55,161 bases of DNA. Origin: Candidatus Woesearchaeota archaeon. Its GTDB lineage: Archaea > Nanobdellota > Nanobdellia > Woesearchaeales > DSVV01. The stretch's first letter is position 1. Each line of letters begins with the position of its first letter. Positions 3,291-28,746 of the stretch are shown piece by piece. The stretch spans positions 1 to 55,161 of the forward strand of contig JACRKF010000014.1 in assembly GCA_016219865.1 (NCBI GenBank), given 5' to 3'. Under the pieces are notes generated by a model that did no database searches, had not been told where the DNA came from, and was given only the letters and a program-made list of their open reading frames with translations. The translations under genes were made by a program, and so were the position numbers.

Positions 3291-3345
3291 AATCCATTGC
3301 CGCCAATAAGATGCGCATATAAAAAGTTTGTTCTATAGTTTTATA
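3291..3345. repeat. Direct repeat copy 2 (truncated hupE 5' fragment fused to the hupE upstream region)
   Basis: 3291-3316 is identical to 534-559 and 3317-3345 is identical to 660-688. Weaker similarity to hupE continues about 20 nt to the left. Lacks the hupE start codon and signal peptide, so it is a gene remnant. Confidence 0.85.
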
Positions 3346-3372
3346 TACAAGTATTGTGCTAGAAATAATTTA

Positions 3373-4002
3373 ATGAGAAAATATTATGATGCATTAAAAG
3401 AACATCTTAAAAGACATCATGAAACATTGAAGCAGCATAGCAGGCGCTTTATTTATCATGTTGATTTTCATAGAAAAAGAATTTATGAACATGGAAGAAA
3501 AATAGCAAAAAAAACTAGTTTTAAAGAGATTTACAAAGAATGGTATGCTCAAGTTGCAGAAGTCAAGACACAACCACATGAGATAGCTTTTGGTTTAGCA
3601 TTAGGTATATTTCTCGGAATAGTGCCAGCTCTTGGATTGCATATACTCTTTGCATTGTTGATTATTGCAATCTTTCGTGTTAATAAAGTAGCTTTATTTA
3701 TTGGGCTGGCGTTGACAAATCCATTAGTTACACCATTAATTTATTCAGCAAGTTTGAAAATAGGTGGATTGATTCTAAATACACCTCGTATTGAAATTTC
3801 ATTTAATCTAATAACATGGAGTTATATTAAACATTATATCAAACCTTTTTTAATAGGCAATATTATTCTTGCAACAACAGTTAGTTTTCTATCTTATACA
3901 ATTACATATTATCTTGTAAAATATTATAAGAATAAGATACTTATCAAGATAAGGGATGATAAGATAAAGAATGATGAAAGTAATAAGAAAAAAGGCGTAT
4001 GA
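3373..4002 (+). CDS. DUF2062-family membrane protein
   Basis: HEIAFGLALGIFLGIVPALGLHILFALLIIAIFRVNKVALFIGLALTNPLVTPLIY resembles the DUF2062 core. ATG at 3373 lies 25-30 nt after a ttttatata TATA-like box, so the transcript may be leaderless. The ORF-track start at 3328 is a TTG inside the repeat. Confidence 0.65.
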   Translation: MRKYYDALKEHLKRHHETLKQHSRRFIYHVDFHRKRIYEHGRKIAKKTSFKEIYKEWYAQVAEVKTQPHEIAFGLALGIFLGIVPALGLHILFALLIIAIFRVNKVALFIGLALTNPLVTPLIYSASLKIGGLILNTPRIEISFNLITWSYIKHYIKPFLIGNIILATTVSFLSYTITYYLVKYYKNKILIKIRDDKIKNDESNKKKGV

Positions 4003-4064
4003 AATAATAAACTATATATACTATTAAAATTAAGCATAATTATCAAAGAGGGGTATTATATTTA

Positions 4065-5027: not shown

Positions 5028-5059
5028 TTTTCTTAAAAACGTTGTTTTTAAGAAAATTA
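5025..5059 (+). terminator. Perfect 16-bp hairpin with T-run at the stop codon of the 4065-5027 gene
   Basis: taattttcttaaaaac-gtt-gtttttaagaaaatta. Begins at the TAA stop. Confidence 0.4.
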
Positions 5060-5122
5060 ATTCGGGTAATTCGGGCAGAAATAAAAGTGTTGAAGAAAAA
5101 AGAGTTAAAAGGGTGCAGCAAA

Positions 5123-9369: not shown

Positions 9370-9419
9370 ATAAATATAAAAACTAAAAGAATAAAAATTG
9401 TTTAAGATAGGTGTAATTT

Positions 9420-9974
9420 ATGGGTTATATGAAAACAGATGTCAATTTCAAATTGCTTGGATTAGTTATCCTTGTTGCAACAATTATTGTTGTAATTGTC
9501 ATAATCTATCAAGCAAGTTTAGGCAAGATTAATACGTCCTATTCAACAATTGAGGAAGATTTGAAATTAACAAATGATAATCTTACAAAAACTAATAATC
9601 TGTTGATAGAATGCCATAAAAAAGCTGAAAACTTGTCTATGGAAATAAATGAAACACAAGTGTTTTTAGAAAAAGCGCAAACAGAATACAATAAAATCTA
9701 TGAACAAACCGAGGGTGAATTATCACAGACTGAAAAAGAGCTTAAAGCAAATAAAAATAAACTTCAAGACCTGAAAGATCAGTTGTCGAAAATAACAAAT
9801 CAATTTAATAATGCAACATTGCAGTTATCAGTTAAAGAAAGTGAAAATATTAAACTTTTGAAAGAAATAGAGGATTTAGATAAAAAGAAAGAAGAATTAA
9901 AAAAATTAAAAGACAAACTTGAGCATTGTGAGAATGAAGATAATACGCTTGCGTGTTATAATGCAGTGAATTAA
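9420..9974 (+). CDS. Membrane-anchored coiled-coil protein
   Basis: 184 aa with AGGTG SD, one N-terminal TM, then heptad-like Lys/Glu/Leu/Asn-rich sequence. No family recognised. Confidence 0.6.
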   Translation: MGYMKTDVNFKLLGLVILVATIIVVIVIIYQASLGKINTSYSTIEEDLKLTNDNLTKTNNLLIECHKKAENLSMEINETQVFLEKAQTEYNKIYEQTEGELSQTEKELKANKNKLQDLKDQLSKITNQFNNATLQLSVKESENIKLLKEIEDLDKKKEELKKLKDKLEHCENEDNTLACYNAVN

Positions 9975-9982
9975 AATTTGAG

Positions 9983-10450
9983 GTGTTTGCAATCAAAAAA
10001 CTTGGTGAAGATATTTGGAGAATTGTTTTTCTGGTCATAGTAGTACTTCTTATACTTTTTATAGGCTATAGTTTCGATGATGGATTGCAAAAAACAGAAG
10101 ATTTTGCTGGCAAAGCATTTGAATTCTTTGCCAAGCATGAGAAAAAAGAAAATCAACAGCAAAAACAAATAGAATCATTTGAATCATTTTGCAAAGAATC
10201 AGATACAGTAACTACAGCAAATACTGGTTTTAATCCATTTGCAAGAGGAAATATTGAATATTCTGAAAAAAATTCTTTAGATTCAAGTAGCGCAATAAAT
10301 AATGTAATAACTAAAACAGATCATTGTAAAAATAAATTAAAGCTAATTGAATATTCTTGCGATAATTATAAACAAAAAGGTCAAGAGTTATTTTCAATAG
10401 TTGATTGTGAATTTGGTTGTGATGAACAATTTGGGAAATGTAAAAATTAA
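9983..10450 (+). CDS. Small membrane-anchored or secreted Cys-rich protein
   Basis: 155-aa ORF with N-terminal hydrophobic segment and seven cysteines, six in the C-terminal 45 aa (HCKNK..YSCDNY..DCEFGCDEQFGKCKN). The GTG at 9983 lies inside a GAGGTG SD, so initiation at ATC 9992 (6 nt after the SD) is an alternative. Confidence 0.5.
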   Translation: MFAIKKLGEDIWRIVFLVIVVLLILFIGYSFDDGLQKTEDFAGKAFEFFAKHEKKENQQQKQIESFESFCKESDTVTTANTGFNPFARGNIEYSEKNSLDSSSAINNVITKTDHCKNKLKLIEYSCDNYKQKGQELFSIVDCEFGCDEQFGKCKN

Positions 10451-10489
10451 TATTTTCGAATTTACTTCGTTCATTCAGAAAATATTAAT

Positions 10490-10520
10490 AAAAAACGACG
10501 AACGGAGTGAGGAGTTTTTT
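10490..10520 (+). promoter_or_regulatory. Conserved SD-containing leader hairpin motif, copy 1
   Basis: aaaaaacgacgaacggagtgaggagtttttt immediately 5' of ATG 10523. aaaaaac can pair with gtttttt. Related copies lie at 23089-23121, 24556-24580 and, degenerate, at 19905-19928. Confidence 0.45.
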
Positions 10521-10522
10521 AT

Positions 10523-11275
10523 ATGGAAGAAATAAAGAGCGCATTACATGAAGTATATGGAACACAAAACAAAGTAATACTATTAACAACATTTTTAGAA
10601 TCAATTGTTGTGTTTTTGATTAGTTATACTGTCTTGTTACTCATTAATTTCTTCAAAAATATCTCTGTAATTATAGCAATTGGCTATTTTTTATATAAAA
10701 GTTTTAAAAGAATCAATAATAAATCACTGCGAGATGTTGAACAAAGAAATCCGTTTCTTGCAGAAAAATTGAGAACAGCTGCAGATACTTTATTGTTTGA
10801 TAATTTTATGGTTCAGAAATTAAGGGAAAGCGTGCTCAGCGACCTTTCACAAGTAAGAATATCCACTTTTATTGATGTCAGAAAATTGTTTAAGATAACT
10901 GCAATTATGTGTTTATTAGCAATAGTAAACATTTTTTTAGGCGTAGCTCATGCGCAAATCATTGATCTTGAAGCAATTATTGGCGGAATGGATTTTGATT
11001 TCAATCTCAAAGATAAATTATTAAAAGGATATGTGTCACAATCACTATTGGATGTTAATGCTGATCTTAATGATATTAATAAGGATTCACAGATTGGAGA
11101 AATAGATGACTTAATGCAGCTTCGGAATAGCAATCTAATGAAAAAGAATGAAAAACTGCCTGATGATTTATTTAAAGCATCTGATAAAAGCTTTGAAGAA
11201 ACTACTTCAAAAAAGAAAAGAATTTATATCAGGAACTACTTTACAAGTATTAGAAAAGCAGAAGCGGGTAATTAA
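10523..11275 (+). CDS. Hypothetical membrane protein (Bat-like operon member)
   Basis: 250-aa ORF with 2-3 TM segments. No recognisable domain and no DUF58-like features seen. Confidence 0.55.
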   Translation: MEEIKSALHEVYGTQNKVILLTTFLESIVVFLISYTVLLLINFFKNISVIIAIGYFLYKSFKRINNKSLRDVEQRNPFLAEKLRTAADTLLFDNFMVQKLRESVLSDLSQVRISTFIDVRKLFKITAIMCLLAIVNIFLGVAHAQIIDLEAIIGGMDFDFNLKDKLLKGYVSQSLLDVNADLNDINKDSQIGEIDDLMQLRNSNLMKKNEKLPDDLFKASDKSFEETTSKKKRIYIRNYFTSIRKAEAGN

Positions 11276-11333
11276 TAATTAAAATATATTAAACGTATTA
11301 AAACATAATTAAAACTAATAAGAGGTATTTGCA

Positions 11334-13883
11334 ATGATTGAAATCGAAAAATTAAAAAGAACATTTGATGCTGTATTCACAGAAACAGATAAAGTAATTG
11401 TTGGACAACGAGATATTATAGAACAAGTTCTTGTTGCAATGTTAGCTGATAGCAATGCGCTTCTTGAAAGTTATCCAGGTTTGGGTAAAACATTGACGAT
11501 CAAAACTTTATCTCAAGTTATGGATATGAAATTCAGCAGAATCCAATGCACTCCTGATTTAATGCCATCAGATATCACTGGCACTGAAATTATTGAAGAA
11601 TCTGGCGGAAAACGTTTTTTTAAATTTCAAGAAGGTCCTGTATTTTCAAATATTCTGCTAGCAGATGAAATTAACAGAGCAACGCCAAAAACACAATCAG
11701 CATTGTTAGAGGCAATGCAGGAGAAACAAGTAACTGTAGGAAACAAGACTTATCAGCTTGACAGACCTTTTTTTGTATTAGCAACGCAGAATCCTATCGA
11801 GCAAGAGGGAAGTCTAGCTCTAGATCAGTATGTGTTTGTTAATGGGCAGTTAAAAACAGGTCATCAACTGCTTGCATTGGTTGGCGATAATTGTATAGCA
11901 GAAGATGAAAAAGGAATTAAACTGTATAATCTTGATGGTTATACACTTTCTCTAAACACGGCAGCAGTATTAGAAAAACAACATTGTTATCTTTATACAT
12001 TGCCATATACAGATGAAATGATTGCAATAACTACTAAAACAGGTAAGGAAATAAAAGTTACTAAGAATCATCCTTTTCTAGTTAATGACAACGGAACAAT
12101 ATGTTGGAAAAAAGCAGAAGAATTAACGAAATATGATCATTTAGTTAATCCTGCAAGAATAAAAGTTGATTCAAAACAGATTAAAATACCAACACATGAA
12201 GAGACTCTTGCGCAAATGGATCAAAAAGCAATTGTTCAAGAGATTACATTTGATGAAGATTTTGCTTTTTGGATTGCATTCTTATTATCAGATGGTTATA
12301 TCGGAGAAAAAACTGTGCAAGCAGTACAGAAAAATTATCCAGAAGCACTTGATAGGTTTGTTGCAATCTCGCAAAAGTATGGTTTTAATCCAAATGTAAG
12401 TCTAAATAGGGGCTGTAGATATGCAACAATCTATTCAAAGCCACTTGTTGAATATTTAAATATCAGGTTTGGTGTTACTGGCGGAAAGGATAAGGAAATT
12501 CCTTCATGGTTTTTATCATGGTCAGAAGCAATGAATCGAGAATTTGTCAAAACATTTATCTGTTTAGAATCCTCATTGCGAGATAATAGGATTGTATTTA
12601 CACAAAAAAGCAAAAATAATATGAATATCATAAGTTATATGCTTTTGCGGGAAGGAATCATCAGTTTTCCTCGATTTGATGGCAAAATATATCGCTTGAA
12701 AATCCAAGGAGAAGATTGTGTAAAGTTTCTAAATAGAATTGGCTGGATTAATGAAGAAAAGGCTGCAATTGTTGACTGCATGAGAAAAATCAAATCAAGT
12801 TTTAGGGTAGTGCCTGTCCAAAGAAATGCAATTCTTAAGCTTGTAAACCTCTTAGGTATAAATAGTTTTCATACCCTTAAAGAACGAACAAATATTACAG
12901 AAAGAAGCTGGTATGGCAGTTATCAAGGTATAAAACAAGGAGAAACTCTTATGGCTGTAGATTCATTGCGTGAATTTGTTCAAGATATTGAAAATGAACT
13001 CTTTCTACGAAAGCAGCAGTCACATGATGATATTTTAGAAACTGATCCACGACAATTCGCTGCAACAATAGGTACGTCAATGACAGAAGTAGCTGAACTC
13101 TTGCAAATATCACATAATCAAGTATGGGGATATTATACAGGTAAAAATTCTCAATCAATAGTTCAGATTAAAACAGTTTTGCAAGAGAAAAAAGTACTTT
13201 GTTTGGAAGAAGCTCAGAAGTTGTTGAACTATTGCAAAGCTCTTTTAAGTGAAGATGTTTATTATGATGCAATCAAAACAATAGAATATTCACCTTCTCA
13301 AGGAATGGCTTTTGGTTTGACTGTGCCAGAAACACAAAATTATATTGCAGGTTTTGGCGGCTGCGGCATTAATCATAATACTTATCCATTGCCAGAAGCT
13401 CAAACTGATAGATTCTTGTTAAAGATTAAAGTAGATTATCCAACTTTTGATGAAGAAGTTGAGATTGTCAAACGATATACTAAAATCTTAAAAGAAGAGC
13501 CTATCAAAAAAATTTTGGGGAAAAATTCTTTCTTAGCATTGCAAAAATTCACTAGAGAAGTGCCAATTGCAGATGATTTAGCAAAGGATGTTGTTAAAAT
13601 AATAGGGTTAACAAGATCTGAGAAAGAGTTTATTGAATATGGTTCATCGCCAAGAGCATCAATTGGTTTAATATTAGCAGCAAAAGCAACTGCATTAATG
13701 AATGGAAGAAGCCATGTCAGCGCAAAAGATATTGAAAAAATGGCATATCCTATCTTGCGTCATAGAATTATCTTAAATTTTGAAGCAGAAAGAAAAGGTT
13801 TGACTAATGATGATGTTATTCGAAAGATTCTGGAAAAAACAATAGGGACGACTGATAAGGAGAAAACAAAAAAAGATAAATAA
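11334..13883 (+). CDS. moxR: MoxR-type AAA+ ATPase (AAA_3 family) interrupted by an intein
   Basis: Exteins read ...ESYPGLGKT (Walker A) ... LLADEINRA (Walker B) ... [12 protein letters not shown] | intein | [21 protein letters not shown]..., which is the contiguous MoxR consensus when spliced. GAGGT SD upstream. Confidence 0.9.
11811..13379 (+). mobile_element. Intein (523 aa) with LAGLIDADG homing-endonuclease domain inside moxR
   Basis: Starts with Ser right after NPIEQEG and ends in HN followed by Thr+1. Has a block B-like TKNHPF, two LAGLIDADG-like motifs about 100 aa apart ([13 protein letters not shown] and [12 protein letters not shown]), and a terminal [10 protein letters not shown]. 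Confidence 0.85.
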
Positions 13884-13926
13884 TTTTCTTATATTTTTGT
13901 GTTTTTATAATCAATTATTATTTTAC

Positions 13927-13939
13927 AAAGCTTTATATA
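13927..13939 (+). promoter_or_regulatory. BRE/TATA-like promoter element upstream of the first surface-protein cassette
   Basis: aaagcTTTATATAcc in the 157-nt intergenic region after moxR. Confidence 0.4.
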
Positions 13940-14040
13940 CCAGTAAACCTCTAATTTTTAATTAATTAAGTTATGATATATTATCTATATAAAAAAAGGG
14001 GAATGGAACAATCTTAGGCTCAAAAAAAGCGCAAGTTACA

Positions 14041-16227
14041 ATGTTTATTATAATAGGGTTAGCTATAGTAGGAGCTGTGCTGGGAGTTATTTATTTATCT
14101 GGCAAAATTAGTTCTGATGATTTAATAACTTCAAATAAAGATCCTGTTTCCGCATATGTAAAACAATGCATAGCTGAAGCAGCAAAAGAAGGAATAATTC
14201 TGTTAGGGCAGCAAGGCGGATATTTATATTTTGATAATTTTGATACACTTTCTGCTTCTCTTGATCCAGATAATGCAGAAGTTGTGCAATTGTATAATGG
14301 AGCTGTTACTGCGCCTTATTGGCTTTATCAAAAGAAAGGCGATGTTCTTGATAAGTCATATATGCCGCAGTTGGTAAAAACATCATTAGGCGATAATTCT
14401 GCGCAAGATCAATTAGAAAGATATATCACTGAAAAACTTCCTGAATGCACTAATCATTTCAAAGCATTGCAAAAAATAAATGTGATTGTTACTGAAAAAA
14501 AAGCGCCTATTGAAACAACTGTTGTTTTTGGCGACGAAGAAACAACAGTTACTGTAAAATATCAACTTGAAATATTGCAAAAGGAAAAGGTAACAACTTT
14601 AGATAAATTTACAACTGCAATTTCAGCAAGTCCAAAGAGGGCATATAATCTTGCAAAAGATATTACACAATATGAACAAAATAATTATTTTCTTGAAAAA
14701 GATACAATGAATCTTGTGCATCTTTATTCTGGTCTTGATGCAGAGAAACTGCCGCCAACGTATGATTTTAAAGTATCTCAATGCGGCGATTTAATCTATT
14801 GGAATTATCCTTCAGTATATGATAAATTTAAAAACACACTTGTCAATAATTTAGTATTTTTTGGCGTTGAAAATACAGACGATAAAAAAATAAAATTAAG
14901 CGCTGAAGCGCAGCCTGATAAAAAAAACAGGGCAATAGAAAATGGCGTATTTAATGGATTTATTCACAAAATCTCTGAAAATAAATACAAGGGAATGAAT
15001 GTTGATTATATTTATCAAGATGATTATCCACTTAGCCTTGATCTTGGTTCAGATGGCATTCTTGAACCAAAAACAATGGATATAAATCTATTATTTCTGA
15101 GTATTTGCATGGCAGAATTTCATTTTGCATATGATTTCTCATTTCCAGTGATGATTGCTGTTACAGATAAAGAATCAAAAATAGATCAAGTTCCTTATTT
15201 ATTTCAATTTCCTATAAAAGTAATTGTTAAAGATAATTTAGCAAGAGTCAGATTCAGTGATGTGATTGGAGGAGCTGTAAAACAACAGCAGCAAGGAATA
15301 AATGAATGCGGCATAGAACAAAGAACATCAGGTGATATTACAGTAACAGTTAATGACCAATATAATAAACCAGTAAATGATGCATTAGTGTATTTCCAAT
15401 GCGGTCCAACATTTTTGTATGATTATGATGAAAGCAAAACAATTATTGGCGCAACAAAAATAGCTGATAAATGTTTCATCGGAAAAACAACAAATGGAAA
15501 ATTAACTGCAAAATTCCCACCATGCATTGGCGGTTCAATTATTAATATTAGGGCAAAAGGATATAGTGAGATTGCAAAGAATATGGAAGATGTTATTGAA
15601 GGAAAATCATCTTCTCAAGAATATACAGTTGAGAAATTAAAACAAGTTGAATTGAAAATACAAAAGTATTTTGTAGATCCAACACAAGGAATTGCATTGG
15701 GCGATAATGGTGAAGTTTTAAAATGCGCTCCTTCAACAAGTGTTAGCCAACTTGGAAAAAAAGAACAAGTAATGGTGAAGTTTACGAAATTAGATGCAGA
15801 AACTGGAGCAATCAAGCCTCCGCCGTTTGCAATGTATATCCCTGGAAATAAAACAACTGTATATATATTGTCTGGGAAATATGAAGTTGAATTACTTTTA
15901 ACACGATTTGAAGCATATCCTGGGGAGATGACTATCAAGAAGAATTCAGAATCAAAACATATACCTGCTGCAAGTCTGTTTGAAAGCGGGAAAACAATAT
16001 ATTATCCTGAAAAAGATGTATTATTGAAATCAACATTAACTGGAGGAAATAAATTTATAATGGATATTAGCGAAGATGAATTAGCAGATGAAAATCCAAC
16101 ATTATTATTAACTATGTTTGATGAAGGGCAACCAAAAATAGTTGAACAGGTTGGTGTTGCATTGCAGCATAGAGAGGGATGTTATAAATTAAATAAGAAT
16201 ATAGCTAAGCCAAGATTTGTGAAATAA
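14041..16227 (+). CDS. Family A surface protein, copy 1 (pilin-like class-III signal type N-terminus, large extracellular part)
   Basis: 728 aa from ATG 14041. Paralog of 31066-33027, sharing FIIIGL, CI..QGGY, P(Y/M)W(L/Y)Y and LE(R/S)YI motifs plus a Cys-containing beta-rich C-terminal domain. The in-frame upstream codons encode ILGSKKAQVT, matching the paralog leader MKKRGMVT, so the true start may be ATC 14011. Confidence 0.75.
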   Translation: MFIIIGLAIVGAVLGVIYLSGKISSDDLITSNKDPVSAYVKQCIAEAAKEGIILLGQQGGYLYFDNFDTLSASLDPDNAEVVQLYNGAVTAPYWLYQKKGDVLDKSYMPQLVKTSLGDNSAQDQLERYITEKLPECTNHFKALQKINVIVTEKKAPIETTVVFGDEETTVTVKYQLEILQKEKVTTLDKFTTAISASPKRAYNLAKDITQYEQNNYFLEKDTMNLVHLYSGLDAEKLPPTYDFKVSQCGDLIYWNYPSVYDKFKNTLVNNLVFFGVENTDDKKIKLSAEAQPDKKNRAIENGVFNGFIHKISENKYKGMNVDYIYQDDYPLSLDLGSDGILEPKTMDINLLFLSICMAEFHFAYDFSFPVMIAVTDKESKIDQVPYLFQFPIKVIVKDNLARVRFSDVIGGAVKQQQQGINECGIEQRTSGDITVTVNDQYNKPVNDALVYFQCGPTFLYDYDESKTIIGATKIADKCFIGKTTNGKLTAKFPPCIGGSIINIRAKGYSEIAKNMEDVIEGKSSSQEYTVEKLKQVELKIQKYFVDPTQGIALGDNGEVLKCAPSTSVSQLGKKEQVMVKFTKLDAETGAIKPPPFAMYIPGNKTTVYILSGKYEVELLLTRFEAYPGEMTIKKNSESKHIPAASLFESGKTIYYPEKDVLLKSTLTGGNKFIMDISEDELADENPTLLLTMFDEGQPKIVEQVGVALQHREGCYKLNKNIAKPRFVK

Positions 16228-16229
16228 AC

Positions 16230-19200
16230 ATGAAAAAGAGAAACAATTTAATTAAAATAAGCAAGGATGCAAAGAAATTTGTTAATAAATCTTTGGCATT
16301 ATTTATGATTACTTTAGTTTTAACACTTCCTTTTTTCTCTGCAGGCGCTTTAGCTGCAACAGGGCAGATTGAGGAAGTTGCATATTCTGGTGATGCTGGC
16401 ATTGCTGGATATATAAATGGAAAAGATGATGTTTTGCATGTTGCAATTGTTGCAAGCAAAGATGTTGGAGAAACAACAAATAAAGATATTGTAATAGAAT
16501 TTAATAATAAACAAGTAAATGCAGACAAATGCGAGGCTGCAACTGCAACTTCAGCAGTTCTAGATGAGACAGCACTTGTTGGTGTTCCACATAAATATAT
16601 TTGCACTTATACTTCAGAACAGAAAACATATTCAGCTGGAAAGATGGATCTTAAAGTAAAATTAGTCGATAAACCAACAGTATCAATATTGGATACTGTG
16701 TTAAAAGAAGTTTTAGTTGATGGTTATGGTCCTGAGATTAATTTAGATATTCCTTCTGGAACAAAAGATAGTTTTACACTTAAATATGACATTAAAGATA
16801 AAATCTGCAAAGATTGCGCGCAACAATGTGTTGGATTATCTCAAGTGTTTTTGGTTGTCAATGGAAATATTGCAGATCAACAAGAGTTTGCTGATCAAAA
16901 TCTTTGCGATTATTCAGTTAATGAAGAAAAATCTATAGGGGATTTGAATCTAGAATTTGGCAAGAATGAGATTTGTGTTGCTGCTGTCGATAAACTTGGG
17001 AATATTGGCGGCAAGGATAAGAAAAAAGGAGAATGCAAAACTATTAATGTTGATAATACTGCGCCAATTTTTGATGAAAATTCATTTGTTATTCTAGACG
17101 ATAAAACTGGAATGGTTATGAATTTTAGAAAAGACACAGTGACAACAGCAACAATCATGATAAATGTTACTGATGATCAAACTAAGATTAAGCCGCAAAA
17201 TGTAGAAGCTGATTTCTCAGCGTTAAATGCAGCATATAAAAGCGAATATAAATCAATAAAACCAACTCAGTGCAAAGAATATGAACTTGAAATAAGCAGC
17301 GAGCAATCAATCTCTTTGTATGAATGCGCATGGAGTAAAATTAAAATTGCAGGCAATTTGGAAGCTGATAGCATTCCTGTAACAATTAAAGCAAAAGATG
17401 CAAGCGAAAATGCAGCTGTTTTCTCGAAAACTCTTAATTTGCCTATAGATGCAGCTGATCCAAAGGTTGTAAAAATAGTTGCATTGTCTGAAACAGGGCA
17501 ACAGATAAAATATCTTAATGGAGATAATAATACAATTGCTTTGCTAATTGATGAGCAAGGCGCTGGATTATCTAAGGCAAATGTGTATATTAAAATAAAT
17601 GGAAAAGAAAGCAAGGCAACAAGGTGCATTGCTGATAATGGCTGGATATGTTTATTTGAAAATGTTCAATCTTTATCAGGGCAAACTGGAGATTCTAAGT
17701 TAATTTCTGTTGTTACAGAAAAATCAAGCGATGATATTGGAAATTTCTTTGATGATAAAGGAGATAATAAAGAAATCTTCTTGCTTGATGCAGATGCTCC
17801 TGAATTTTCTTCAAAAAGCATTTCAATAAAACCAAGCGGTGTTGAAAGAGATACTCTTGTTAATGGTGATATTGTTGATATAAAAGCGCTTATTAAAGAA
17901 AGAGGCGCAGGGTTATCAGCAGAAAATGCGTATGCTGATATTACTGCATTTGATCCAAGTTTAGAGGGAGATGCAGCAAGATTAAAAGCAGAAGATTGTT
18001 CAGTTAAAACAGAAAATGATGAAAGTGCAGCTGTTGCTCCTACGTCTGCTCCTGCAGATGGTGAAGCAGATGCTGCAGAAGTTGAAGAGGATTTGTTTTC
18101 TAATGATGAACAATTATATGAATGCACTTTCCAATATTCAGGCAGTATTGCAGCGCAAGATATTTCATTAGAAATTGTTGCGCGAGATCTAGCGAACAAT
18201 CAAAAGAGAAGCAGTGATGATGATGAATATGGTAAAATTAAAGCAGTTGAAATTGCGCAGAAAAAAGCAGATTTCTTTGTTGATAGTCTTGAAATAAAAG
18301 CAGATGAAATTAATAGAAATCATCTTTGGATGAGTGATGCAGGCGCAATTGTCAGAGCAGAGGTAACATTGCAAGCGAAAGGAGGAAAAGAGCCTTATGT
18401 GCATGGTTTTAGATTTGGCACTTGCGCAGGAGCAATTGATACAGAAAAATCATTAAATGGCTCAACACCAATTACATTCAATGAATATGGCACTCCTGAA
18501 GTTAAGAGCAAAGGAAGAAGAACAAAATTAATTCTTTTAACACTGCCAACTATGGATAAAAAATTGCTTAAGGATGCAAAAACATTTACAGTTACTTGCG
18601 ATGGAGCAATTACGCAGTCAAGTTCAAAAAACAGCAATATATTCTCTCCTGATGAAGCATTTCAAGCAGTAATTACAATCCCGATAGGTTCATCTGTTTA
18701 TAATCCAGGAGATGCGGCATTGAATAAGATTATTGAAGGAAAAGGATTTGTTGATGCAATGGACGCAATTCTGAGTGTATTAGAGCCAATTGTTGATATT
18801 TTAAGCAAGATTTGCGAGCCAATTAATGATATTAGAACAATTATCAATAATATTTGCGCAGTCATAAATGGTCTTGCAATAGTATTTACAGGCACCCCAT
18901 GGGGTGAAGCTACAGGAGCTGCGTCAACTTTACGTGGAAATGATAATACTTGCACAGACATTGGAAAGTTCATGGATAAATTATGGCAAGGTTCTAGTCC
19001 TGATCCTGAAGCATGGAATGAAAAAAGTTTTGCAAGCATTGGATATTGGTGTGACTTAGTATTATGCACAAGCTGTTCAGAACAATGGGGCAGTAATATT
19101 CTTGGCGGTTGGGGCGGAGATATTCCAGGCAGTCCTGCAAGTGTATTTGGTGATAAAATTAAATCAGATCCTTCTGCAGCAAGAGCTGCTGCTGATCTTA

Positions 19201-19775
19201 CACATCAGCCAGGTGATCCTCCTAACTTAGGTGATTTTACAGTTGGGTTAAATCTTGATCCGCAGCAGAGTTTAATTGTTGCGTTAATTTGTTCACCTCC
19301 TTGTCTGCCAACTATAAAAAATAAATTTACAGCAATGAAACAAATTGCTGTTTCAAATAATGTCTGCAGAAACTTGGCATATAGAACAACTAAGACTGAT
19401 AAATCTCCTGCTGACTTTAGTAAATGCGATGGTCTTAAAGGACAGCAAATATGTCAATTTATTGTTGGAGAAATTTGGTATATTGTGCCGTCTATAATAT
19501 CGCAGTTTGCAACAAAATGGGTTTCATATTTTGTAGAAAAAGGCTTGCGTTATATTGGCGGTTGTCCAGATGGAATACAAAGTCCAGGAACAACTGTTTG
19601 CATTGTTACCAGAATAGAGATTGCAATATCAACTGCTTTCAAAATAACAGAAACAGTTGCTAAATTTGAAAAGTTGGCAAAAGCGTTTGACTTTGACACA
19701 AAAAGCGCAGATGATACAGAAGATGATATTGAAAAAGAGTACGAAGAAGCTTACGGGGAGATTCCTGAAGAATAA
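16230..19775 (+). CDS. Family B giant secreted protein, copy 1 (Ig-like repeats plus Cys-rich core)
   Basis: 1181 aa starting 2 nt after the family A gene. Sec-type signal (..FFSAGALAATGQ), four or more repeat modules bordered by D-x-x-(A/G)-P motifs, a Cys-rich core shared with 33136-39159, an acidic tail, and no TM anchor. Confidence 0.8.
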   Translation: MKKRNNLIKISKDAKKFVNKSLALFMITLVLTLPFFSAGALAATGQIEEVAYSGDAGIAGYINGKDDVLHVAIVASKDVGETTNKDIVIEFNNKQVNADKCEAATATSAVLDETALVGVPHKYICTYTSEQKTYSAGKMDLKVKLVDKPTVSILDTVLKEVLVDGYGPEINLDIPSGTKDSFTLKYDIKDKICKDCAQQCVGLSQVFLVVNGNIADQQEFADQNLCDYSVNEEKSIGDLNLEFGKNEICVAAVDKLGNIGGKDKKKGECKTINVDNTAPIFDENSFVILDDKTGMVMNFRKDTVTTATIMINVTDDQTKIKPQNVEADFSALNAAYKSEYKSIKPTQCKEYELEISSEQSISLYECAWSKIKIAGNLEADSIPVTIKAKDASENAAVFSKTLNLPIDAADPKVVKIVALSETGQQIKYLNGDNNTIALLIDEQGAGLSKANVYIKINGKESKATRCIADNGWICLFENVQSLSGQTGDSKLISVVTEKSSDDIGNFFDDKGDNKEIFLLDADAPEFSSKSISIKPSGVERDTLVNGDIVDIKALIKERGAGLSAENAYADITAFDPSLEGDAARLKAEDCSVKTENDESAAVAPTSAPADGEADAAEVEEDLFSNDEQLYECTFQYSGSIAAQDISLEIVARDLANNQKRSSDDDEYGKIKAVEIAQKKADFFVDSLEIKADEINRNHLWMSDAGAIVRAEVTLQAKGGKEPYVHGFRFGTCAGAIDTEKSLNGSTPITFNEYGTPEVKSKGRRTKLILLTLPTMDKKLLKDAKTFTVTCDGAITQSSSKNSNIFSPDEAFQAVITIPIGSSVYNPGDAALNKIIEGKGFVDAMDAILSVLEPIVDILSKICEPINDIRTIINNICAVINGLAIVFTGTPWGEATGAASTLRGNDNTCTDIGKFMDKLWQGSSPDPEAWNEKSFASIGYWCDLVLCTSCSEQWGSNILGGWGGDIPGSPASVFGDKIKSDPSAARAAADLTHQPGDPPNLGDFTVGLNLDPQQSLIVALICSPPCLPTIKNKFTAMKQIAVSNNVCRNLAYRTTKTDKSPADFSKCDGLKGQQICQFIVGEIWYIVPSIISQFATKWVSYFVEKGLRYIGGCPDGIQSPGTTVCIVTRIEIAISTAFKITETVAKFEKLAKAFDFDTKSADDTEDDIEKEYEEAYGEIPEE

Positions 19776-19779: not shown

Positions 19780-19815
19780 TTTGCTTTTTTCTGAATGCGT
19801 TCAGAAAAAAGCAAA
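19780..19815 (+). terminator. Perfect 16-bp hairpin with T6 run just after the family B1 stop codon
   Basis: tttgcttttttctgaa-tgcg-ttcagaaaaaagcaaa, 5 nt after TAA 19773-19775. Confidence 0.45.
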
Positions 19816-19928
19816 TAGCAGGGATTATGGTTTTGGAGCGGGTAATTCGAGCAAAAGAGAATCTTGGTAGAAAACTGCAAAAATTGAAGAAAATTTTGCA
19901 AAGTTCTCTGAACGGAGTGAACTTTTTT

Positions 19929-21278
19929 ATGAAATTGAAAGAATCAGAAACAGTTGAATTTAAGAAATCAACGAGTGAGTTAAAAGAAGCTGTTATTTCG
20001 ATAGTTGCAATGCTAAATAAACATAGAAAAGGGGAATTGTATTTTGGCGTCAGAAATGATGGTGTTGTTGTTGGGCAAACAATTGGCGAGAATACAATCA
20101 GAGATATATCTAAAGCTGTTTCTGATAATATTGAACCAAAAATATTCCCTAAGATAAATGAACTATTGCTTGAAAACAAAAAGTGCGTAGTTGTTGATTT
20201 TGTTGGTCGAGATATTCCTTATTATGCATATGGCAGAGCGTATATGCGCGTTGGTGATGAGGATAAAAAGATAAGAGCTAAAGAACTTGAGAATATGATT
20301 ATCTCTAAAAATAAAGATAAATTGCAATGGGATAAAGAAATCTGCAAAAATGCTACATTAGATGATATTGATGATGAAACTGTAAAAATATTTATTGATT
20401 TAGCAAAAGAAAGCAAGAAAATAAAAATTACAAATGAAACAAAAATAATGATATTAAAAAAGTTGGAACTTATGAATAATAGTAATCATTTAACTAATGC
20501 AGCAATACTTCTTTTTGGAAAGCAGCCACAGCATTTCTTTAGTAATATATCAATCAGATGTGGAAGATTTAAAGGAGTTGGACAACAAGAATTTATAGAT
20601 ATGAAAGATTTTGAAGGCAATCTTTTTACTTGTTTGGAGAAATCTGTGTCATTTCTTAAAGATCATTTGCATATAACTGCAAAAATAAAAGGATTACTAA
20701 GAATTGAAAAATGGGAAATTCCTCTTGAAGCATTAAGAGAGGCAATTATTAATGCTTTGATTCATAGGGATTATTATGATACAAGCAATATTTATATAAA
20801 GATCTATGATGATTCAATTGTTATAGCAAATCCTGGCAAACTTCCCGATGTTTTAACAATAAAAGATTTATATAAAACACATGAATCAAAACCAAAAAAT
20901 CAATTGCTTGCAAATGTATTTTATTATGCCGGATTTATTGATAAATGGGGAAATGGGATTCTGAATATAATTGATTTCTTGAAAAAAGAAAATCTAGAAA
21001 AGCCAATATTTGAACAAAGCGGTGGTTCATTTAGAATAATCTTTAAGCGACCAATGTTAGAAAACGACCTAGAAAAGAAAACTGTGGAGAAAACTGTGGA
21101 GAAAATGTTAACAATGATTAAAGAGAATCTAAGTATTACGCAACAAGAGCTTTCAAGAAAGACTGGATTAACAAGAAGAGGAGTAGAATGGAACCTAAAG
21201 CAACTTAAAGAAAGAAATCTTATCGAGAGAGTTGGTCCAGACAAAGGCGGATATTGGAAAGTTATTCAAAAGAAATAG
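19929..21278 (+). CDS. AlbA_2 (Schlafen-like) / HATPase_c_4 / winged-helix putative transcriptional regulator, copy 1
   Basis: Starts MKLKESETVEFKKSTSELKEA (AlbA_2 hallmark). Central EALREAIINALIHRDY and FIDKWGNGI (RecG-C-terminal-like ATPase fold). C-terminal wHTH ending GPDKGGYWKV. ATG 19929 chosen by alignment with the paralog at 23123. The ORF-track extension from 19827 has no support. Confidence 0.8.
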   Translation: MKLKESETVEFKKSTSELKEAVISIVAMLNKHRKGELYFGVRNDGVVVGQTIGENTIRDISKAVSDNIEPKIFPKINELLLENKKCVVVDFVGRDIPYYAYGRAYMRVGDEDKKIRAKELENMIISKNKDKLQWDKEICKNATLDDIDDETVKIFIDLAKESKKIKITNETKIMILKKLELMNNSNHLTNAAILLFGKQPQHFFSNISIRCGRFKGVGQQEFIDMKDFEGNLFTCLEKSVSFLKDHLHITAKIKGLLRIEKWEIPLEALREAIINALIHRDYYDTSNIYIKIYDDSIVIANPGKLPDVLTIKDLYKTHESKPKNQLLANVFYYAGFIDKWGNGILNIIDFLKKENLEKPIFEQSGGSFRIIFKRPMLENDLEKKTVEKTVEKMLTMIKENLSITQQELSRKTGLTRRGVEWNLKQLKERNLIERVGPDKGGYWKVIQKK

Positions 21279-21321
21279 AAGAATCTAAATAGCAGTTAAT
21301 TAAAAAGAAAGGTAAGAAACA

Positions 21322-22980
21322 ATGAAAGATTTCAAACGAATGCTTGTAATGATTATCGTAATAATTCTTTTGATAGCTATAAGCTTATTTGCTGAGAAAA
21401 GTGATTTTAACCAAGAAAAAAAGGATTTGATTGGGAAAGTGATTACTGTTGCTCAAATTGATGCATTTCCAACAAACTCACTTATAAAAGCAGATGATGG
21501 AAGATATTTAAAGGATGGAGCTGTTTTTTATAAAGTAAAAGATGGTAACACACTATCTCCAGGTACGATTACATCAGCTCAATTATTAGGGAAATGCGCT
21601 AAAGAATGTACGATAGTTGGTTATTTGAAATCAGGTCAACAAGTACTGCAAGTTGGTAAAGTGTATCACTTTAATCAAATTTCTGATCAATTATCATCTT
21701 CTTCAGCAACTATAAATTATAATTATAAACTTAATGAAGCTGTAAGTGGTGATGTACTAATAATTGGTTCAGAAACATATATCAAGAGAAAAGGTGGTTG
21801 GGTGAAATCAGATAATGAGAATGATGATGAAAACAAGCCAAGAATAAATGATGCAGAAGTAGATATATTAATCAAATCTAATTGTAAAAATAGAAATCAA
21901 TGTAGTTTAAATTCTAAAGATTTGGTAACAGTGACTACAGTTCCAGCTGAATCACCTAAATTAGTTTCAGTTGATGACGCACAACAATCACCTTCTCACA
22001 TAAACAATGATGGTTCAGTTACATTCAAATCAGCAGATGGCAAACAAATATTCATCGTTCCTGCAGGACAATCAGATGTGTTTATCTGTAATGATGATAA
22101 ATGTGAAAAGCCAACAAAATGTTCTAGATGTAAATTTGAAAAGAAAGATGGCATGCATACATTTCTTAATAATGGCGAGGAAGTTGAAACAGATTTAGAT
22201 GAAGATGAAACTCCTGAAATTATTCGAGAGAAGAATGAAGATTTTTGCACAAAAGAAAATAATATGGATCAAGGACAATGTCAATATGTAAAGCAAAATT
22301 TAATCAGTGCTGTAAATATTGCAACTGCGCCATTTAGAGCAGAAATTGAAAGAATTATTTCTCCATATATTAATTCATTATTGGATGAAATGTGGATAGG
22401 AAGCAATAGAAATTTCATAATGGCTTGGTGCGGAGCAAAGTATTATGAAAAAGAAGGTTCACAGATTCAAGCATTTGGAAGTATATCTGATAGTTGGAAA
22501 GCACCTAATACTTTTGGTGTTCAAGATCCAGTTGATGTTGTTTATAATGGATTATTAAGCGGTGAAAATAATATCATCAAAATGTCAGGCACTAAAGAAG
22601 AAATTACACCAGAAATGTATCGTTATTCTGGAAGAGTACAATTGCTGGGTAATATGCAATATAGAGTTTATTTCTATAACTCTTGCACTAAACAAAGTTC
22701 TTTATTTGAAGGCGGCTTTGTTAAAGAAGGGCAATTATCTGCAACAGGCCAGCCAAATTATGATATTCAACAGTATAATGATTATTTTGCAGGAGCTGCA
22801 ACAACATTTAATTGTAAAACTGGAGCTTGCAGGTTTAATCAACTTTGCGCGCGAACAATTAAAACTATAAATAATGAAGATCAAAAAGAAGAAGAAACTT
22901 GCGTAACGCTTGCAAAAAAGAAATTCTTGACGCCATTTAAAGACGGCAAAGCTAGCAAAGATGGCAGTGTTGATTGTTAA
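21322..22980 (+). CDS. Family C secreted protein, copy 1 (variable repeats plus conserved 9-Cys C-terminal domain)
   Basis: 552 aa with N-terminal signal anchor. The C-terminal ~250 aa are highly similar to the C-terminus of 24584-28681 (NIATAPFRAE, WIGSNRNFIMA.CGAKYYEKEG, IIKMSGTKEEIT). Ends in ...GSVDC. Confidence 0.8.
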   Translation: MKDFKRMLVMIIVIILLIAISLFAEKSDFNQEKKDLIGKVITVAQIDAFPTNSLIKADDGRYLKDGAVFYKVKDGNTLSPGTITSAQLLGKCAKECTIVGYLKSGQQVLQVGKVYHFNQISDQLSSSSATINYNYKLNEAVSGDVLIIGSETYIKRKGGWVKSDNENDDENKPRINDAEVDILIKSNCKNRNQCSLNSKDLVTVTTVPAESPKLVSVDDAQQSPSHINNDGSVTFKSADGKQIFIVPAGQSDVFICNDDKCEKPTKCSRCKFEKKDGMHTFLNNGEEVETDLDEDETPEIIREKNEDFCTKENNMDQGQCQYVKQNLISAVNIATAPFRAEIERIISPYINSLLDEMWIGSNRNFIMAWCGAKYYEKEGSQIQAFGSISDSWKAPNTFGVQDPVDVVYNGLLSGENNIIKMSGTKEEITPEMYRYSGRVQLLGNMQYRVYFYNSCTKQSSLFEGGFVKEGQLSATGQPNYDIQQYNDYFAGAATTFNCKTGACRFNQLCARTIKTINNEDQKEEETCVTLAKKKFLTPFKDGKASKDGSVDC

Positions 22981-23088
22981 AAGTATTTTTCTGAGTCAAA
23001 AATAGAAGAATATAAAAAGAAGTTAATTAATAATATAAAATAGTTAAAAAAGTGCAAGAGTTACGCTATCTTCACTATTACTGAGCTT

Positions 23089-23121
23089 AAAAAAACGACG
23101 ACTAAAAGGAGGAGTTTTTTT
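23089..23121 (+). promoter_or_regulatory. Conserved SD-containing leader hairpin motif, copy 2
   Basis: aaaaaaacgacgactaaaaggaggagttttttt directly 5' of ATG 23123. Shares aaaaaacgacga and ggagtttttt with copy 1. Confidence 0.45.
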
Positions 23122-23122
23122 A

Positions 23123-24481
23123 ATGAAATTCAAAGAATCAGAAACAGTTGAACTTAAAAAATCAACAAGTGAATTAAAGGAAGCTGTTATTTCTATAGTT
23201 GCAATGCTGAATAAACAGCATAAAGGTGAAGTCTATTTTGGAATAAGAAATGATGGTGCTGTAGTTGGGCAAACAATATCAGAGAATACAATTAGGGAGA
23301 TTTCAAGGGTAATATCTGAATCTATTGAACCAAAAATCTATCCAAAAATAGATGAAGTTGTTGTTAATGGTAAAAATTGTGTGTCTGTTGTTTTTCTTGG
23401 AAATGATATTCCTTATTATGCTTATAGCAGAGCATATATGCGTGTTGGTGATGAGGATAGGAAGATTAGTGCTAGAGAACTAGAGAGAATAATTCTTGAA
23501 AAAAATAAGGAAAAATTGCGTTGGGATAATCAGATATGTAAAGGTGCTAAGCTAAGTGATATTGATAATGAAACTTTACAAAAATTCATTGATTTAACAA
23601 AAAAAGAGAAACGAATCATCATAACTGAGAAAAATAATGAACTTATTCTCAAAAAATTAGGTTTGGTCACTAAAGAAGGTATAACAAATGCAGCAATACT
23701 TTTGTTTGGTAAAGAACCTCTTCGTTTTTTTTTCAACAGTACAGTAAAAGCTGGAAGGTTTAAAGATTTCATAAAGAAAGAATTCATTGATATTAAAGAT
23801 TTTAATGGTAATCTTTTTCAAACTCTTGAAAATGTTATGCTTTTTTTTCAGAACCACCTGCATACTCGAGCAAGGATTGAAGGATTGCAAAGAATTGAAA
23901 AATGGGAGATACCTCTTGAAGCATTGAGAGAAGCAGTGATTAATGCTCTTATCCATCGTAATTATTTTAATAATGAATCTACATATATAAAAATCTATGA
24001 TGCAGCAGTTATTATTGCAAATCCTGGTAATTTATTGGCAAATCTTTCTATTTCTGATTTATACAAAGAGCATAATTCTGAATTACGCAATCCGTTATTA
24101 GCATATACTTTTTATTATGCTGGGTTCATCGATAAATGGGGCAGAGGAATTCTTAATATTGTTGATTCTCTCAAACAAAATAAATTGCAAAAACCTCAAT
24201 TTGAACAAAAAGGCAGTTATTTTAGTATTATTCTTAAACGAGAATTAGTTGAAAATGCATCTGAAAAGGTCCCTGAAAAGGTCCCTGAAAATGTTACTCC
24301 AAATCAAGAAAAGATAATTAATTCTATATCAAGAAGTAATTTTATCACAATTCCTGAATTATCAAAAATTATTGGCATTTCAGAGAGAAAGATTAGGGAA
24401 AATATAAGAAAATTAAAACAAAAAAAATTGCTCGAAAGAATCGGTCCAGACAAAGGCGGCTATTGGAAACTGTTGCGATAG
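23123..24481 (+). CDS. AlbA_2 (Schlafen-like) / HATPase_c_4 / winged-helix putative transcriptional regulator, copy 2
   Basis: 452 aa and collinear with 19929-21278. About nine in ten nucleotides of the first ~95 nt are identical by my eye count. Same ESETVE.KKS, EALREA.INALIHR, FIDKWG.GI and GPDKGGYWK motifs. Confidence 0.85.
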   Translation: MKFKESETVELKKSTSELKEAVISIVAMLNKQHKGEVYFGIRNDGAVVGQTISENTIREISRVISESIEPKIYPKIDEVVVNGKNCVSVVFLGNDIPYYAYSRAYMRVGDEDRKISARELERIILEKNKEKLRWDNQICKGAKLSDIDNETLQKFIDLTKKEKRIIITEKNNELILKKLGLVTKEGITNAAILLFGKEPLRFFFNSTVKAGRFKDFIKKEFIDIKDFNGNLFQTLENVMLFFQNHLHTRARIEGLQRIEKWEIPLEALREAVINALIHRNYFNNESTYIKIYDAAVIIANPGNLLANLSISDLYKEHNSELRNPLLAYTFYYAGFIDKWGRGILNIVDSLKQNKLQKPQFEQKGSYFSIILKRELVENASEKVPEKVPENVTPNQEKIINSISRSNFITIPELSKIIGISERKIRENIRKLKQKKLLERIGPDKGGYWKLLR

Positions 24482-24555
24482 ATTTATTAATACAAAATAT
24501 AAAAACAAGTTTATTAATAAGCTAATTAAGTAAAAGGTCCGTAAGTTTAGCTAAT

Positions 24556-24580
24556 AAAAAACGACCTAATGGAGTTTTTT
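24556..24580 (+). promoter_or_regulatory. Conserved SD-containing leader hairpin motif, copy 3
   Basis: aaaaaacgacctaatggagtttttt. By analogy with copies 1 and 2 the gene starts at the ATG 3 nt downstream (24584), not at the ATG embedded in the motif (24569). Confidence 0.4.
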
Positions 24581-24583
24581 ATC

Positions 24584-28681: not shown

Positions 28682-28746
28682 ACAAAACATTTATATACTT
28701 GTGAGGTATTATACCTATTAAGTATTATACTTGGCAGGTATATAAA

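Follow-up and report, generated by a model that had tools for sequence, protein, structure and literature searches.

The window analysed here, a 55,161-nucleotide (nt) stretch of contig JACRKF010000014.1 from a Candidatus Woesearchaeota archaeon (assembly GCA_016219865.1), carries two adjacent genes, A1 (14011-16227) and B1 (16230-19775), and further along the same forward strand a second, divergent pair of this kind, A2 (31066-33027) and B2 (33136-39159). We class the module as an archaeal surface complex of the anchor-plus-passenger kind, which uses a class III-type N-terminus and consists of new protein families. Our preferred, still tentative interpretation is that in archaea of Woesearchaeota and Pacearchaeota type A and B together make up a constitutive complex of the cell envelope, each forming one half of it. 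The module is a candidate for the cell coat or a host-contact structure of these lineages; its function as a coat, the physical contact between A and B and the cleavage of A are what we infer, and a constitutive coat appears more likely than an accessory adhesin. Few uncultivated archaea are as widespread as Woesearchaeota and Pacearchaeota, and for the make-up of their envelope and their contact with hosts the locus offers candidates on an order-wide scale: a family with thousands of members, no entry in Pfam or NCBIfam and a strikingly conserved prepilin-type N-terminus, a faithful exported partner for each of its two clades, and a six-gene context.

Two lines of argument carry this interpretation. 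A physical complex is favoured because the two proteins have complementary topologies (A a single N-terminal hydrophobic helix, B a Sec-type signal and no convincing transmembrane segment), because their genes are translationally coupled, and because each clade of A remains faithful to its own type of partner at order-level divergence. A constitutive structure is favoured because the family is huge, because it is inherited vertically beside housekeeping genes, because sizes and cysteine patterns are constant, and because the genes are under purifying selection.

Word-indexed homologue searches returned 9 matches for A and 1 for B1, and a search with the B1-family alignment added none, which reflects low sensitivity and not rarity. 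An exhaustive search of representative proteins (50% clusters) with a profile built on a 10-sequence A alignment retrieved 8,877, 6,169 and 1,709 representatives at E-values of at most 1e-3, 1e-10 and 1e-30, respectively, nearly all of them 650-850 amino acids (aa) long and, where named, entered as 'hypothetical protein, Candidatus Woesearchaeota'. Scanning one genome per species with the single 9-residue pattern [LA]GQQGGY[IL][YED] yielded 72 loci from species-level metagenome-assembled genomes (MAGs), which range over Woesearchaeota, Pacearchaeota, Nanoarchaeota/Nanoarchaeia and a few entries called simply 'archaeon'; the label Methanosarcinales on some third-party assemblies among them we read as mislabelling. 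IMG/VR contained no relative of family A. The initial annotation had seen in the pair a strong candidate for an attachment or host-interaction apparatus of a probable episymbiont; 8,877 representatives and housekeeping neighbours better suit a core component of the envelope than a special accessory adhesin.

The succession of A and B is equally widespread. When open reading frames (ORFs) were called in all loci and scanned with hidden Markov models (HMMs) of the families, 63 A genes were followed by at least 1.5 kb of sequence, and the gene directly after A was a B gene in 56 of these 63 cases, of B1 type in 40 and a B2-type giant in 16; several of the seven exceptions are frameshifted or truncated genes. 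The adjacency first noticed in the window is therefore conserved across genomes. Gaps within the 40 A1-B1 pairs run from -50 to +158 nt and cluster at a 4-nt overlap. The type of partner is mirrored in the length of A, which is 721-867 aa (median 796) in front of B1 and 614-665 aa (median 630) in front of B2, and a single split of a neighbour-joining tree parts all B1-partnered A proteins (29/29) from all B2-partnered ones (15/15), 44 of 44 in total. Given this split and the fidelity of the partners, A1-B1 and A2-B2 are ancient paralogous pairs and did not arise by local duplication, and in place of a recent duplication in this genome there are two old lineages of A, each of which has kept its own type of B across orders. 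Such fidelity fits co-evolving physical partners. The surroundings of the clusters are of a housekeeping kind: methionyl-tRNA synthetase (MetRS) precedes A1 in 18 loci, and A2-B2 has S3Ae, TFIIB and ndk as neighbours; MetRS, NTP_transf_2/HEPN, S3Ae and TFIIB are the commonest Pfam families among 142 flanking ORFs in 47 loci.

In the window, the stop codon of A1 (TAA) is followed by AC and then by the ATG of B1, and both sequence and ORF coordinates thus bear out the reported 2-nt gap. A1 is of the long type (738 aa if it starts at ATC 14011, 728 aa if at ATG 14041; see below), and B1, its B1-type partner, has 1181 aa. The closest relative of the window is the Candidatus Woesearchaeota MAG RIFCSPHIGHO2_02_FULL_32_12 (locus L007), with 86% amino acid identity in A1 and ~84% in B1. 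Ratios of nonsynonymous to synonymous substitution rates (dN/dS) against this relative are 0.08 for A1 and 0.15 for B1, compared with 0.04-0.20 in neighbouring genes of housekeeping type, and A1 and B1 are therefore real coding genes under purifying selection. Upstream of A1 on the same strand lies an element resembling an archaeal promoter with a B recognition element (BRE) and TATA box, ACAAAGCTTTATATA (13915-13929), for which the consensus suggests this function; a block of 34 nt that includes it shows no difference from L007, amid intergenic DNA that has diverged, and a similar promoter-like element, CAAAGTTTATAAATA, precedes A2. Directly 3' of the B1 stop, a perfect 16-bp palindrome (19780-19815, unstranded; -18.6 kcal/mol, z-score -4.75) is likely to mark the end of the A1-B1 transcription unit. 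With the promoter-like block, the 2-nt gap and the terminal palindrome, A1-B1 therefore has the appearance of a self-contained unit of two genes.

The N-terminus of A had been described as class III, and it proved to be the most conserved stretch of the protein, with a prepilin-like motif. A1 begins ..SKKAQVTMFIIIGL and A2 MKKRGMVTLFIIIGL, and both follow the class III rule of FlaFind type, a basic leader ending in [KR][GA] and a subsequent hydrophobic stretch of ~20 aa: KKA↓QVTMFIIIGLAIVGAVLGVIYL in A1 and KRG↓MVTLFIIIGLVLLILIGLF in A2, the arrow marking the predicted site. In A1 the motif, KKA↓QVTMFIIIGL, and the hydrophobic helix occupy 14023-14121. Across the family the consensus is [KR][KR][GA]-Q-[VI]-T-[IVL]-F-I-I-I-G-I after a basic leader of variable length, and the motif is found in all homologues with intact N-termini. 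Among 15-aa windows of A this one holds the most information, 3.4 bits per position compared with a mean of 1.78 and slightly above the QQGGY region; the sequences used for this calculation were chosen by a permissive motif filter, and the unfiltered alignment gives the same pattern. The glycine at -1 (~3.5 bits) and the glutamine at +1 (~4.2 bits) are what a processing site would show, as judged from the alignment. A search for a prepilin peptidase gave none in the window and a single Peptidase_A24 gene (E 9.4e-15) elsewhere, in the cluster of locus L044 between B1 and the gene TM introduced below, that is in 1 of ~70 loci.

An AlphaFold2 model of A1 based on the 10-sequence alignment (mean predicted local distance difference test, pLDDT, 70; predicted template modelling score, pTM, 0.48) has a long N-terminal helix at residues 5-37. 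This is followed by a predicted alpha/beta domain (residues ~45-410; 14143-15240) with the invariant QQGGY and a pLDDT mostly of 70-90, for which no attributable fold match was found in the PDB or BFVD. Conserved cysteine pairs and the invariant polar residues Q68, G69, G70, K209, E222, E229, D386 and N409 belong to this domain; the family alignment has no invariant His or Ser and no invariant CxxC. The secondary structure of the model then points to a C-terminal run of beta-sandwich domains (residues ~440-705; 15328-16125), which was the sole part matched by Foldseek in PDB and BFVD, with TM-scores of at most 0.15 when normalised to the query and at most 0.42 when normalised to short targets. 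The domain-level matches comprise a TIE protein, Gram-positive pilins, SlaB, carboxypeptidase regulatory domains and phage tail proteins; that to SlaB (8qox_B; E 8.5e-7, TM-score 0.11/0.17) is of a generic beta-sandwich kind, and no alpha-beta roll of a pilin was found by Foldseek. At the extreme C-terminus of A (16120-16227 in the window) we observed a conserved motif of the form x-P-x-aromatic/hydrophobic (KPRFV, EPRWG, KPTFE and similar) with P734 invariant, which by its pattern might be a docking strand.

B1 opens with a predicted Sec-type signal peptide (16230-16358; ..LPFFSAGALA↓ATGQ, putative cleavage site); across the family this signal reads LFM..LVL..PFYSA.ALA, and its A-x-A site is conserved. 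A chain of ~6 Ig-like (immunoglobulin-like) domains follows (16359-18689), with paired cysteines and invariant D...P boundaries at D164/P168, D275/P279, D407/P411 and D520/P524. B1 of the window has no Pfam match above threshold; its Ig-like nature rests on Big_3_3 and Big_13, which are found in 13 and 8 of 36 family members, respectively, and the region gives weak profile matches to Ig regions in the PDB. The C-terminal core of ~350 residues (18717-19679), predicted to be all-alpha, contains the invariant cysteines C946, C1025, C1046, C1066, C1075 and C1124. In all, 14 cysteines are invariant in 36 B1 homologues, and size and cysteine pattern are kept despite ~18% identity, which argues for a structural role over that of shuffled adhesin modules. 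With cysteine contents of 2.5% in B1 and 1.6% in B2, the proteins are moderately Cys-rich. The N-terminal signal is the sole strongly hydrophobic segment of either protein; each core has one borderline helix (residues 868-888 of B1; 1241-1259 of B2, with charged residues), and neither sequence appears to contain a convincing membrane anchor.

B2, with 2007 aa, has a signal peptide, an fn3/Ig region at residues ~24-700, a conserved Cys-rich core at ~885-1590 and further C-terminal domains. Its Pfam matches are Pur_ac_phosph_N (8.4e-25), fn3 (4.4e-20), Big_6 (2.8e-9) and Glucodextran_B, and in both B proteins such Ig-like or fn3 matches are confined to the N-terminal parts, outside the conserved cores. 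The Cys-containing core is long and conserved, and homologues of B2 come after A2-type genes in 16 loci. We also looked in the B2-type giants for a murein-transglycosylase (SLT) domain as in fam00969 (PMC8204110) and can reject this candidate, since the domain was not found in the 12 members searched.

The second pair is related to the first to a very different degree in its two halves. A2, a short A2-type paralogue of 653 aa with the N-terminus MKKRG↓MVTLFIIIGL, and A1 are clear paralogues, as a BLASTP comparison demonstrates (E=1e-18, 25% identity over 569 aa). Between B1 and B2, BLASTP detected no similarity (best E 2.1), and profile-profile alignment with hhalign recovered a single common cysteine motif of ~80-120 columns (probability 88.6%, E 2.7e-6; with larger alignments of 36 and 12 sequences 78.6%, E 1.7e-5). 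This motif, C..CLP.I....L......I.....C...C...C, lies at 19251-19538 in B1 and at 36697-36936 (residues 1188-1267) in B2, where it includes the borderline helix. 'Family B' is on these grounds a distant relationship at best. The initial annotation was right about the Sec signals, the missing anchor and the Ig/fn3 repeats of the B proteins; the shared core that it ascribed to them shrinks to this motif. Likewise, the recurrence of A followed by B at 31066-39159 stands as far as A2 is a paralogue of A1, but direct coupling does not, since 108 nt lie between A2 and B2.

Both pairs are parts of an ancestral locus of the order A1, B1, a large secreted protein, a protein with ~6 transmembrane helices, A2 and B2. 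Exactly this order is contiguous in L001, L002 and L020, with a polytopic protein of 255-290 aa in fourth position, and it is kept in the window, where accessory genes are inserted between the conserved ones. The third position is taken in the window by C1 (21322-22980) and C2 (24569-28681), both on the forward strand, which go back to a duplication of the position-3 gene. C1 is a secreted or anchored protein of a clade-specific family with a Cys-rich C-terminal domain, and its homologues are the genes after B1 in L001, L007 and L008; C2, its paralogue (49% identity over the C-terminal 417 aa), has a TPR segment and acidic low-complexity regions. Position 3 is occupied by at least two families without detectable mutual similarity: homology of the C proteins of the window to the common, L033-type family was considered and rejected (hhalign probability 0.6%), and a comparison of C with B found no homology. 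The gene TM (30241-30999, forward strand), immediately upstream of A2, encodes a polytopic protein with ~6 transmembrane helices by hydropathy and no Pfam assignment; homologues are in the equivalent position in L001, L002, L005, L020, L033, L044, L054, L058 and L063. All six genes of the locus encode membrane or exported proteins only.

The exported proteins are poor in sequons. Together A1, B1, C1, C2, A2 and B2 contain 20 N-x-S/T sites compared with ~53 expected from composition, C1 and C2 having none, and in a comparison set of four cytoplasmic proteins and one VWA protein 14 were observed compared with 22 expected. A tendency to avoid N-glycosylation may, as far as composition can tell, lie behind this depletion.

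The conserved parts of A have no match in Pfam or NCBIfam (E<=0.1), PHROG, PADLOC or the PDB sequences, and at the same threshold no pilin or Class_IIIsignal model of Pfam or NCBIfam matches A. The conserved cores of B1 and B2 have no Pfam or PDB match, profile searches of the PDB sequences yielding nothing significant. The statement that no characterised family covers the conserved parts of either protein thus holds for Pfam, NCBIfam, PHROGs, PADLOC, PDB and Foldseek, and we found no publication that describes families A, B or TM. A viral or defence origin was considered and rejected, because A, B1 and the B2 core have no PADLOC or PHROG match (the sole PHROG matches are to the fn3 region of B2), A has no IMG/VR relative, and housekeeping synteny is conserved. 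Castelle et al. (2021) reported a Module 98, whose 51 families are confined to Woesearchaeota and Pacearchaeota, for the most part lack annotation and are in many cases membrane-bound or extracellular (PMC8204110). A and B, with an equal taxonomic range and the same 'hypothetical, extracellular' character, are probably among these families; that study is a listing of presence and absence, without the pairing of A and B, the prepilin-like N-terminus or the six-gene locus.

If A and B form an envelope complex, B would be exported via Sec and, its signal peptide removed, would have no anchor of its own. A would be inserted by its highly conserved prepilin-like helix, would probably be trimmed after [KR][GA] by the class III signal peptidase of the cell, and would stay in the membrane as a monotopic stalk composed of the novel alpha/beta domain and the beta-sandwich domains. 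Such a stalk would hold the cognate B at the surface, where the Ig-like chain and the disulfide-stabilised helical core of B would constitute the exposed layer. A1-B1, A2-B2, the third large secreted protein and the ~6-TM protein are inherited together and would probably make up one composite surface structure, a fixed coat comparable in function to the S-layer that SlaA and SlaB form as a two-component system and, in cells thought to be episymbionts, also the side that faces the host.

Several known systems share parts of this design, and two of them, the Sulfolobus bindosome and FlaF, are precedents for the possible architecture and processing of A. Modular type IV pilins may carry bulky C-terminal modules, for example PilB and PilC of Streptococcus sanguinis. 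A resembles them in bearing a prepilin-type N-terminus on a large body, with a motif that fits the rule of [KR][GA] before a hydrophobic stretch. The sugar-binding proteins of the Sulfolobus bindosome likewise display a class III signal on a large, non-pilin body at the envelope (PMC3047682). Unlike either, A belongs to a new family of 650-870 aa, has a strict Sec-exported partner and was found linked neither to Bas-like nor to filament genes. FlaF and FlaG are monotopic proteins with a pilin-like N-terminal helix, as A would be, and the extracellular beta-sandwich of FlaF binds the surface-layer protein (PMC4425475); FlaF, however, has ~160 aa and is encoded in the archaellum operon, whereas A is 4-5 times larger, includes a novel alpha/beta domain and is unlinked to archaellum genes.

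The closest functional analogue, by analogy of gene arrangement and architecture, appears to be the SlaA/SlaB S-layer of Sulfolobales (PMC10903991). In both systems adjacent genes encode a smaller, anchored beta-sandwich stalk and a far larger exported protein without an anchor, and both are core to their lineage and constitutive, A-B presumably so. The domain-level Foldseek match of the A stalk to SlaB (E 8.5e-7) speaks for the likeness. There is no sequence homology between the two, and SlaB is anchored by a C-terminal transmembrane segment with a coiled coil, in contrast to the N-terminal prepilin-like helix of A. A-B further differs in its two paralogous pairs with two additional conserved genes and in its Cys-rich, sequon-poor proteins.

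A number of points weigh against a coat of this kind. Contact between A and B, a lattice and high abundance are presumed rather than directly observed, and the AlphaFold2 model of the B1 core, from a 2-sequence alignment, was unusable (pLDDT 37.5), its secondary structure alone being taken. The opposite ends at which SlaB and A are anchored limit the comparison, and the Foldseek likeness between them is that of generic beta-sandwiches. Two paralogous pairs plus extra proteins exceed the complexity of known S-layers, and many cysteines together with depleted sequons (20 compared with 53) are unlike typical archaeal S-layer glycoproteins. A different family may form the lattice, because a metatranscriptome study annotates 'S-layer protein genes' in Woesearchaeota (PMC11606122). 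Finally, the conservation of the N-terminus of A exceeds what a plain anchor needs, and type IV filament machinery may handle A.

This last point leads to the strongest alternative, a possible though doubtful one in line with the initial annotation, in which A is a modular pilin and B the host-binding cargo of a type IV filament apparatus for host attachment. A would be cleaved by a prepilin peptidase, its helix extracted by an ATPase and platform encoded elsewhere, and A built into a pilus, at the tip or at the base, from where the Ig repeats and the Cys-rich domain of B would bind the host cell. The most conserved part of A, [KR][GA]-Q-[VI]-T-x-F-I-I-I-G, stands behind a basic leader whose length varies, and in both respects A shows what is typical of sites of prepilin processing, of which the KGQ site of Methanococcus EppA substrates is an example. 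The Peptidase_A24 gene inside the L044 cluster and the adhesin-type domains fn3 and Glucodextran_B of B2 point in the same direction. So do the large, adhesin-like proteins beside some archaeal filament loci: those of Thermoproteales are, like B, big exported Ig-fold proteins with conserved cysteines next to pilin-like proteins, and have been proposed as adhesins or S-layer-like components (PMC4858521; bioRxiv 10.64898/2026.04.22.720090). The Thermoproteales loci, however, carry an ATPase, a platform and several small pilins that were not found in A-B loci, and no homology to their proteins was detected. Of the 64 Pfam families that the 142 ORFs beside A-B clusters match, the 25 commonest include no filament ATPase, no TadC/FlaJ platform and no small pilin, and the window contains none of these genes. 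The linkage of the A24 gene in only 1 of ~70 loci, and A with neither a pilin family match nor a pilin roll, speak against this alternative as well, and constant size, purifying selection and housekeeping neighbours better suit a constitutive structure than a variable adhesin. Coat and filament are compatible and not exclusive, given that the coat of an episymbiont is its host-contact face too. A result either way would extend the known uses of archaeal class III signal peptides.

A bolder version of the envelope complex, which we think rather unlikely, would make the six-gene locus an unrecognised envelope machine specific to Woesearchaeota and Pacearchaeota, in which the helical cores of disulfide-locked partners, held by proteins with a prepilin-like anchor, engage or penetrate the host envelope. 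If true, episymbiosis in the largest uncultivated DPANN orders would have its physical basis here, in a machine without a homologue among the pili, S-layers and secretion systems known so far.

Alternatively, A might be a maturation or assembly factor for B and no tether at all, a proposal that we regard as improbable. As a membrane-bound extracytoplasmic enzyme or chaperone, A would use the domain of QQGGY, E222 and E229 to fold, cross-link or modify the Cys-rich core of B as it emerges from Sec, and B would then be released or attached otherwise, for example by TM or the third secreted protein. Strict coupling and partner fidelity are equally expected of a dedicated chaperone-substrate pair, and the invariant polar residues and cysteine pairs are found in an alpha/beta domain that is adjacent to the membrane, where Sec substrates emerge. 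Nevertheless, searches of Pfam, NCBIfam, PDB and Foldseek found no catalytic motif or enzyme fold, A lacks an invariant His, Ser or CxxC, and its three additional beta-sandwich domains have no obvious use in a chaperone. Least credible is an invasive or pore-forming device, in which the helical core of B would enter the host membrane as a conduit for nutrients while A and TM form a base in the symbiont membrane: it can appeal to the one amphipathic or hydrophobic helix of each B core, to a lineage thought to be host-dependent (PMC8204110) and to a locus of membrane and exported proteins only, but it is purely speculative, the helices have a hydropathy below usual transmembrane thresholds and, in B2, charged residues, no similarity to known pore formers or fusogens was found, and the model of the B1 core is unusable.

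The start of A1 deserves attention of its own. A Shine-Dalgarno-like GGGG (13999-14002) lies 8 nt before a candidate non-canonical start codon, ATC 14011, and the two make up a feature at 13999-14013 on the forward strand. Neither in the window nor in L007 is there an in-frame ATG, GTG or TTG between the preceding stop (13990) and 14041, and upstream of ATG 14041, the sole canonical start of A1, the conserved peptide ..SKKAQVT is encoded in frame. Codon 14041 is ATG in the window and GTG in L007, and the 48 nt before it differ from L007 at 2 sites, both synonymous in frame. A1 is thus likely to be translated from AUC 14011, which would give M/I-LGSKKA↓QVTMFIIIGL. The start at 14011 proposed in the initial annotation is plausible in view of the Shine-Dalgarno-like sequence and the conserved frame, although its codon is not canonical. 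An out-of-frame mini-ORF of 4 codons on the same strand (MEQS and a stop; ATG 14003 to TAG 14017) overlaps the candidate ATC, an arrangement that is conserved in L007, and the whole configuration at 13990-14043 may, by its layout, be a weak-start or translational-control feature. A programmed frameshift from the mini-ORF into A1 was rejected, because the stop precedes the run of A and the required shift would lack slippery re-pairing.

The spacer of the second pair contains a long hairpin (33023-33096, forward strand; -36.4 kcal/mol, z-score -3.6). The equivalent spacer of L001 (21845-21975) folds even more stably (-51.7 kcal/mol, z-score -7.5) and is unrelated in sequence; the majority of the other A2-B2 pairs have a 4-nt overlap and no spacer. 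The hairpin has no Rfam match and could be an element of processing or attenuation within the operon, or a small inserted repeat.

Between the two pairs (19827-30138), the window carries apparent insertions: two paralogous regulators with AlbA_2, HATPase_c_4 and winged helix-turn-helix (wHTH) domains, 60% identical, and a DUF234 ATPase. The former match PADLOC models of prokaryotic Argonaute-associated (pAgo-associated) and CARF-like type, the latter is the PADLOC candidate PDC-S27. In other loci, NTP_transf_2/HEPN pairs or, in L009, an AlbA_2 gene are found in the spot downstream of B1, and accessory or defence genes seem to insert into this region preferentially, as at a hot spot. Upstream of A1, a MoxR-VWA operon (3328-13883) comprises DUF2062, an unannotated protein of 320 aa, BatA-VWA-DUF7407-DUF7408, a second VWA protein, two small membrane or coiled-coil proteins, DUF7502 and MoxR. 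L007 shows synteny with this operon; in other lineages A-B has no link to it and is preceded by MetRS. The window has a GC content of ~31%, as a low-GC archaeal contig, and two inteins (Intein_splicing), one with a LAGLIDADG domain in the MoxR (AAA_3) ATPase (11334-13883) and one in GyrB (48786-51491); relatives have intein-free orthologues (MoxR of L007, 326 aa; GyrB of L001, 641 aa). Convergent with B2 on the reverse strand, there is a 649-aa ORF with a signal-like N-terminus (39177-41126), for which Pfam, NCBIfam, PHROGs and PADLOC gave no match and the retrieved loci no homologue. Also on the reverse strand, the stretch 43326-46066 holds a pair of adjacent paralogues (ORFs of 249 and 291 aa with 35% identity) next to an ORF of 280 aa, all without family assignment; PIN-domain genes lie at 41388 and 51594, and genes of nucleotidyltransferase type are close by.

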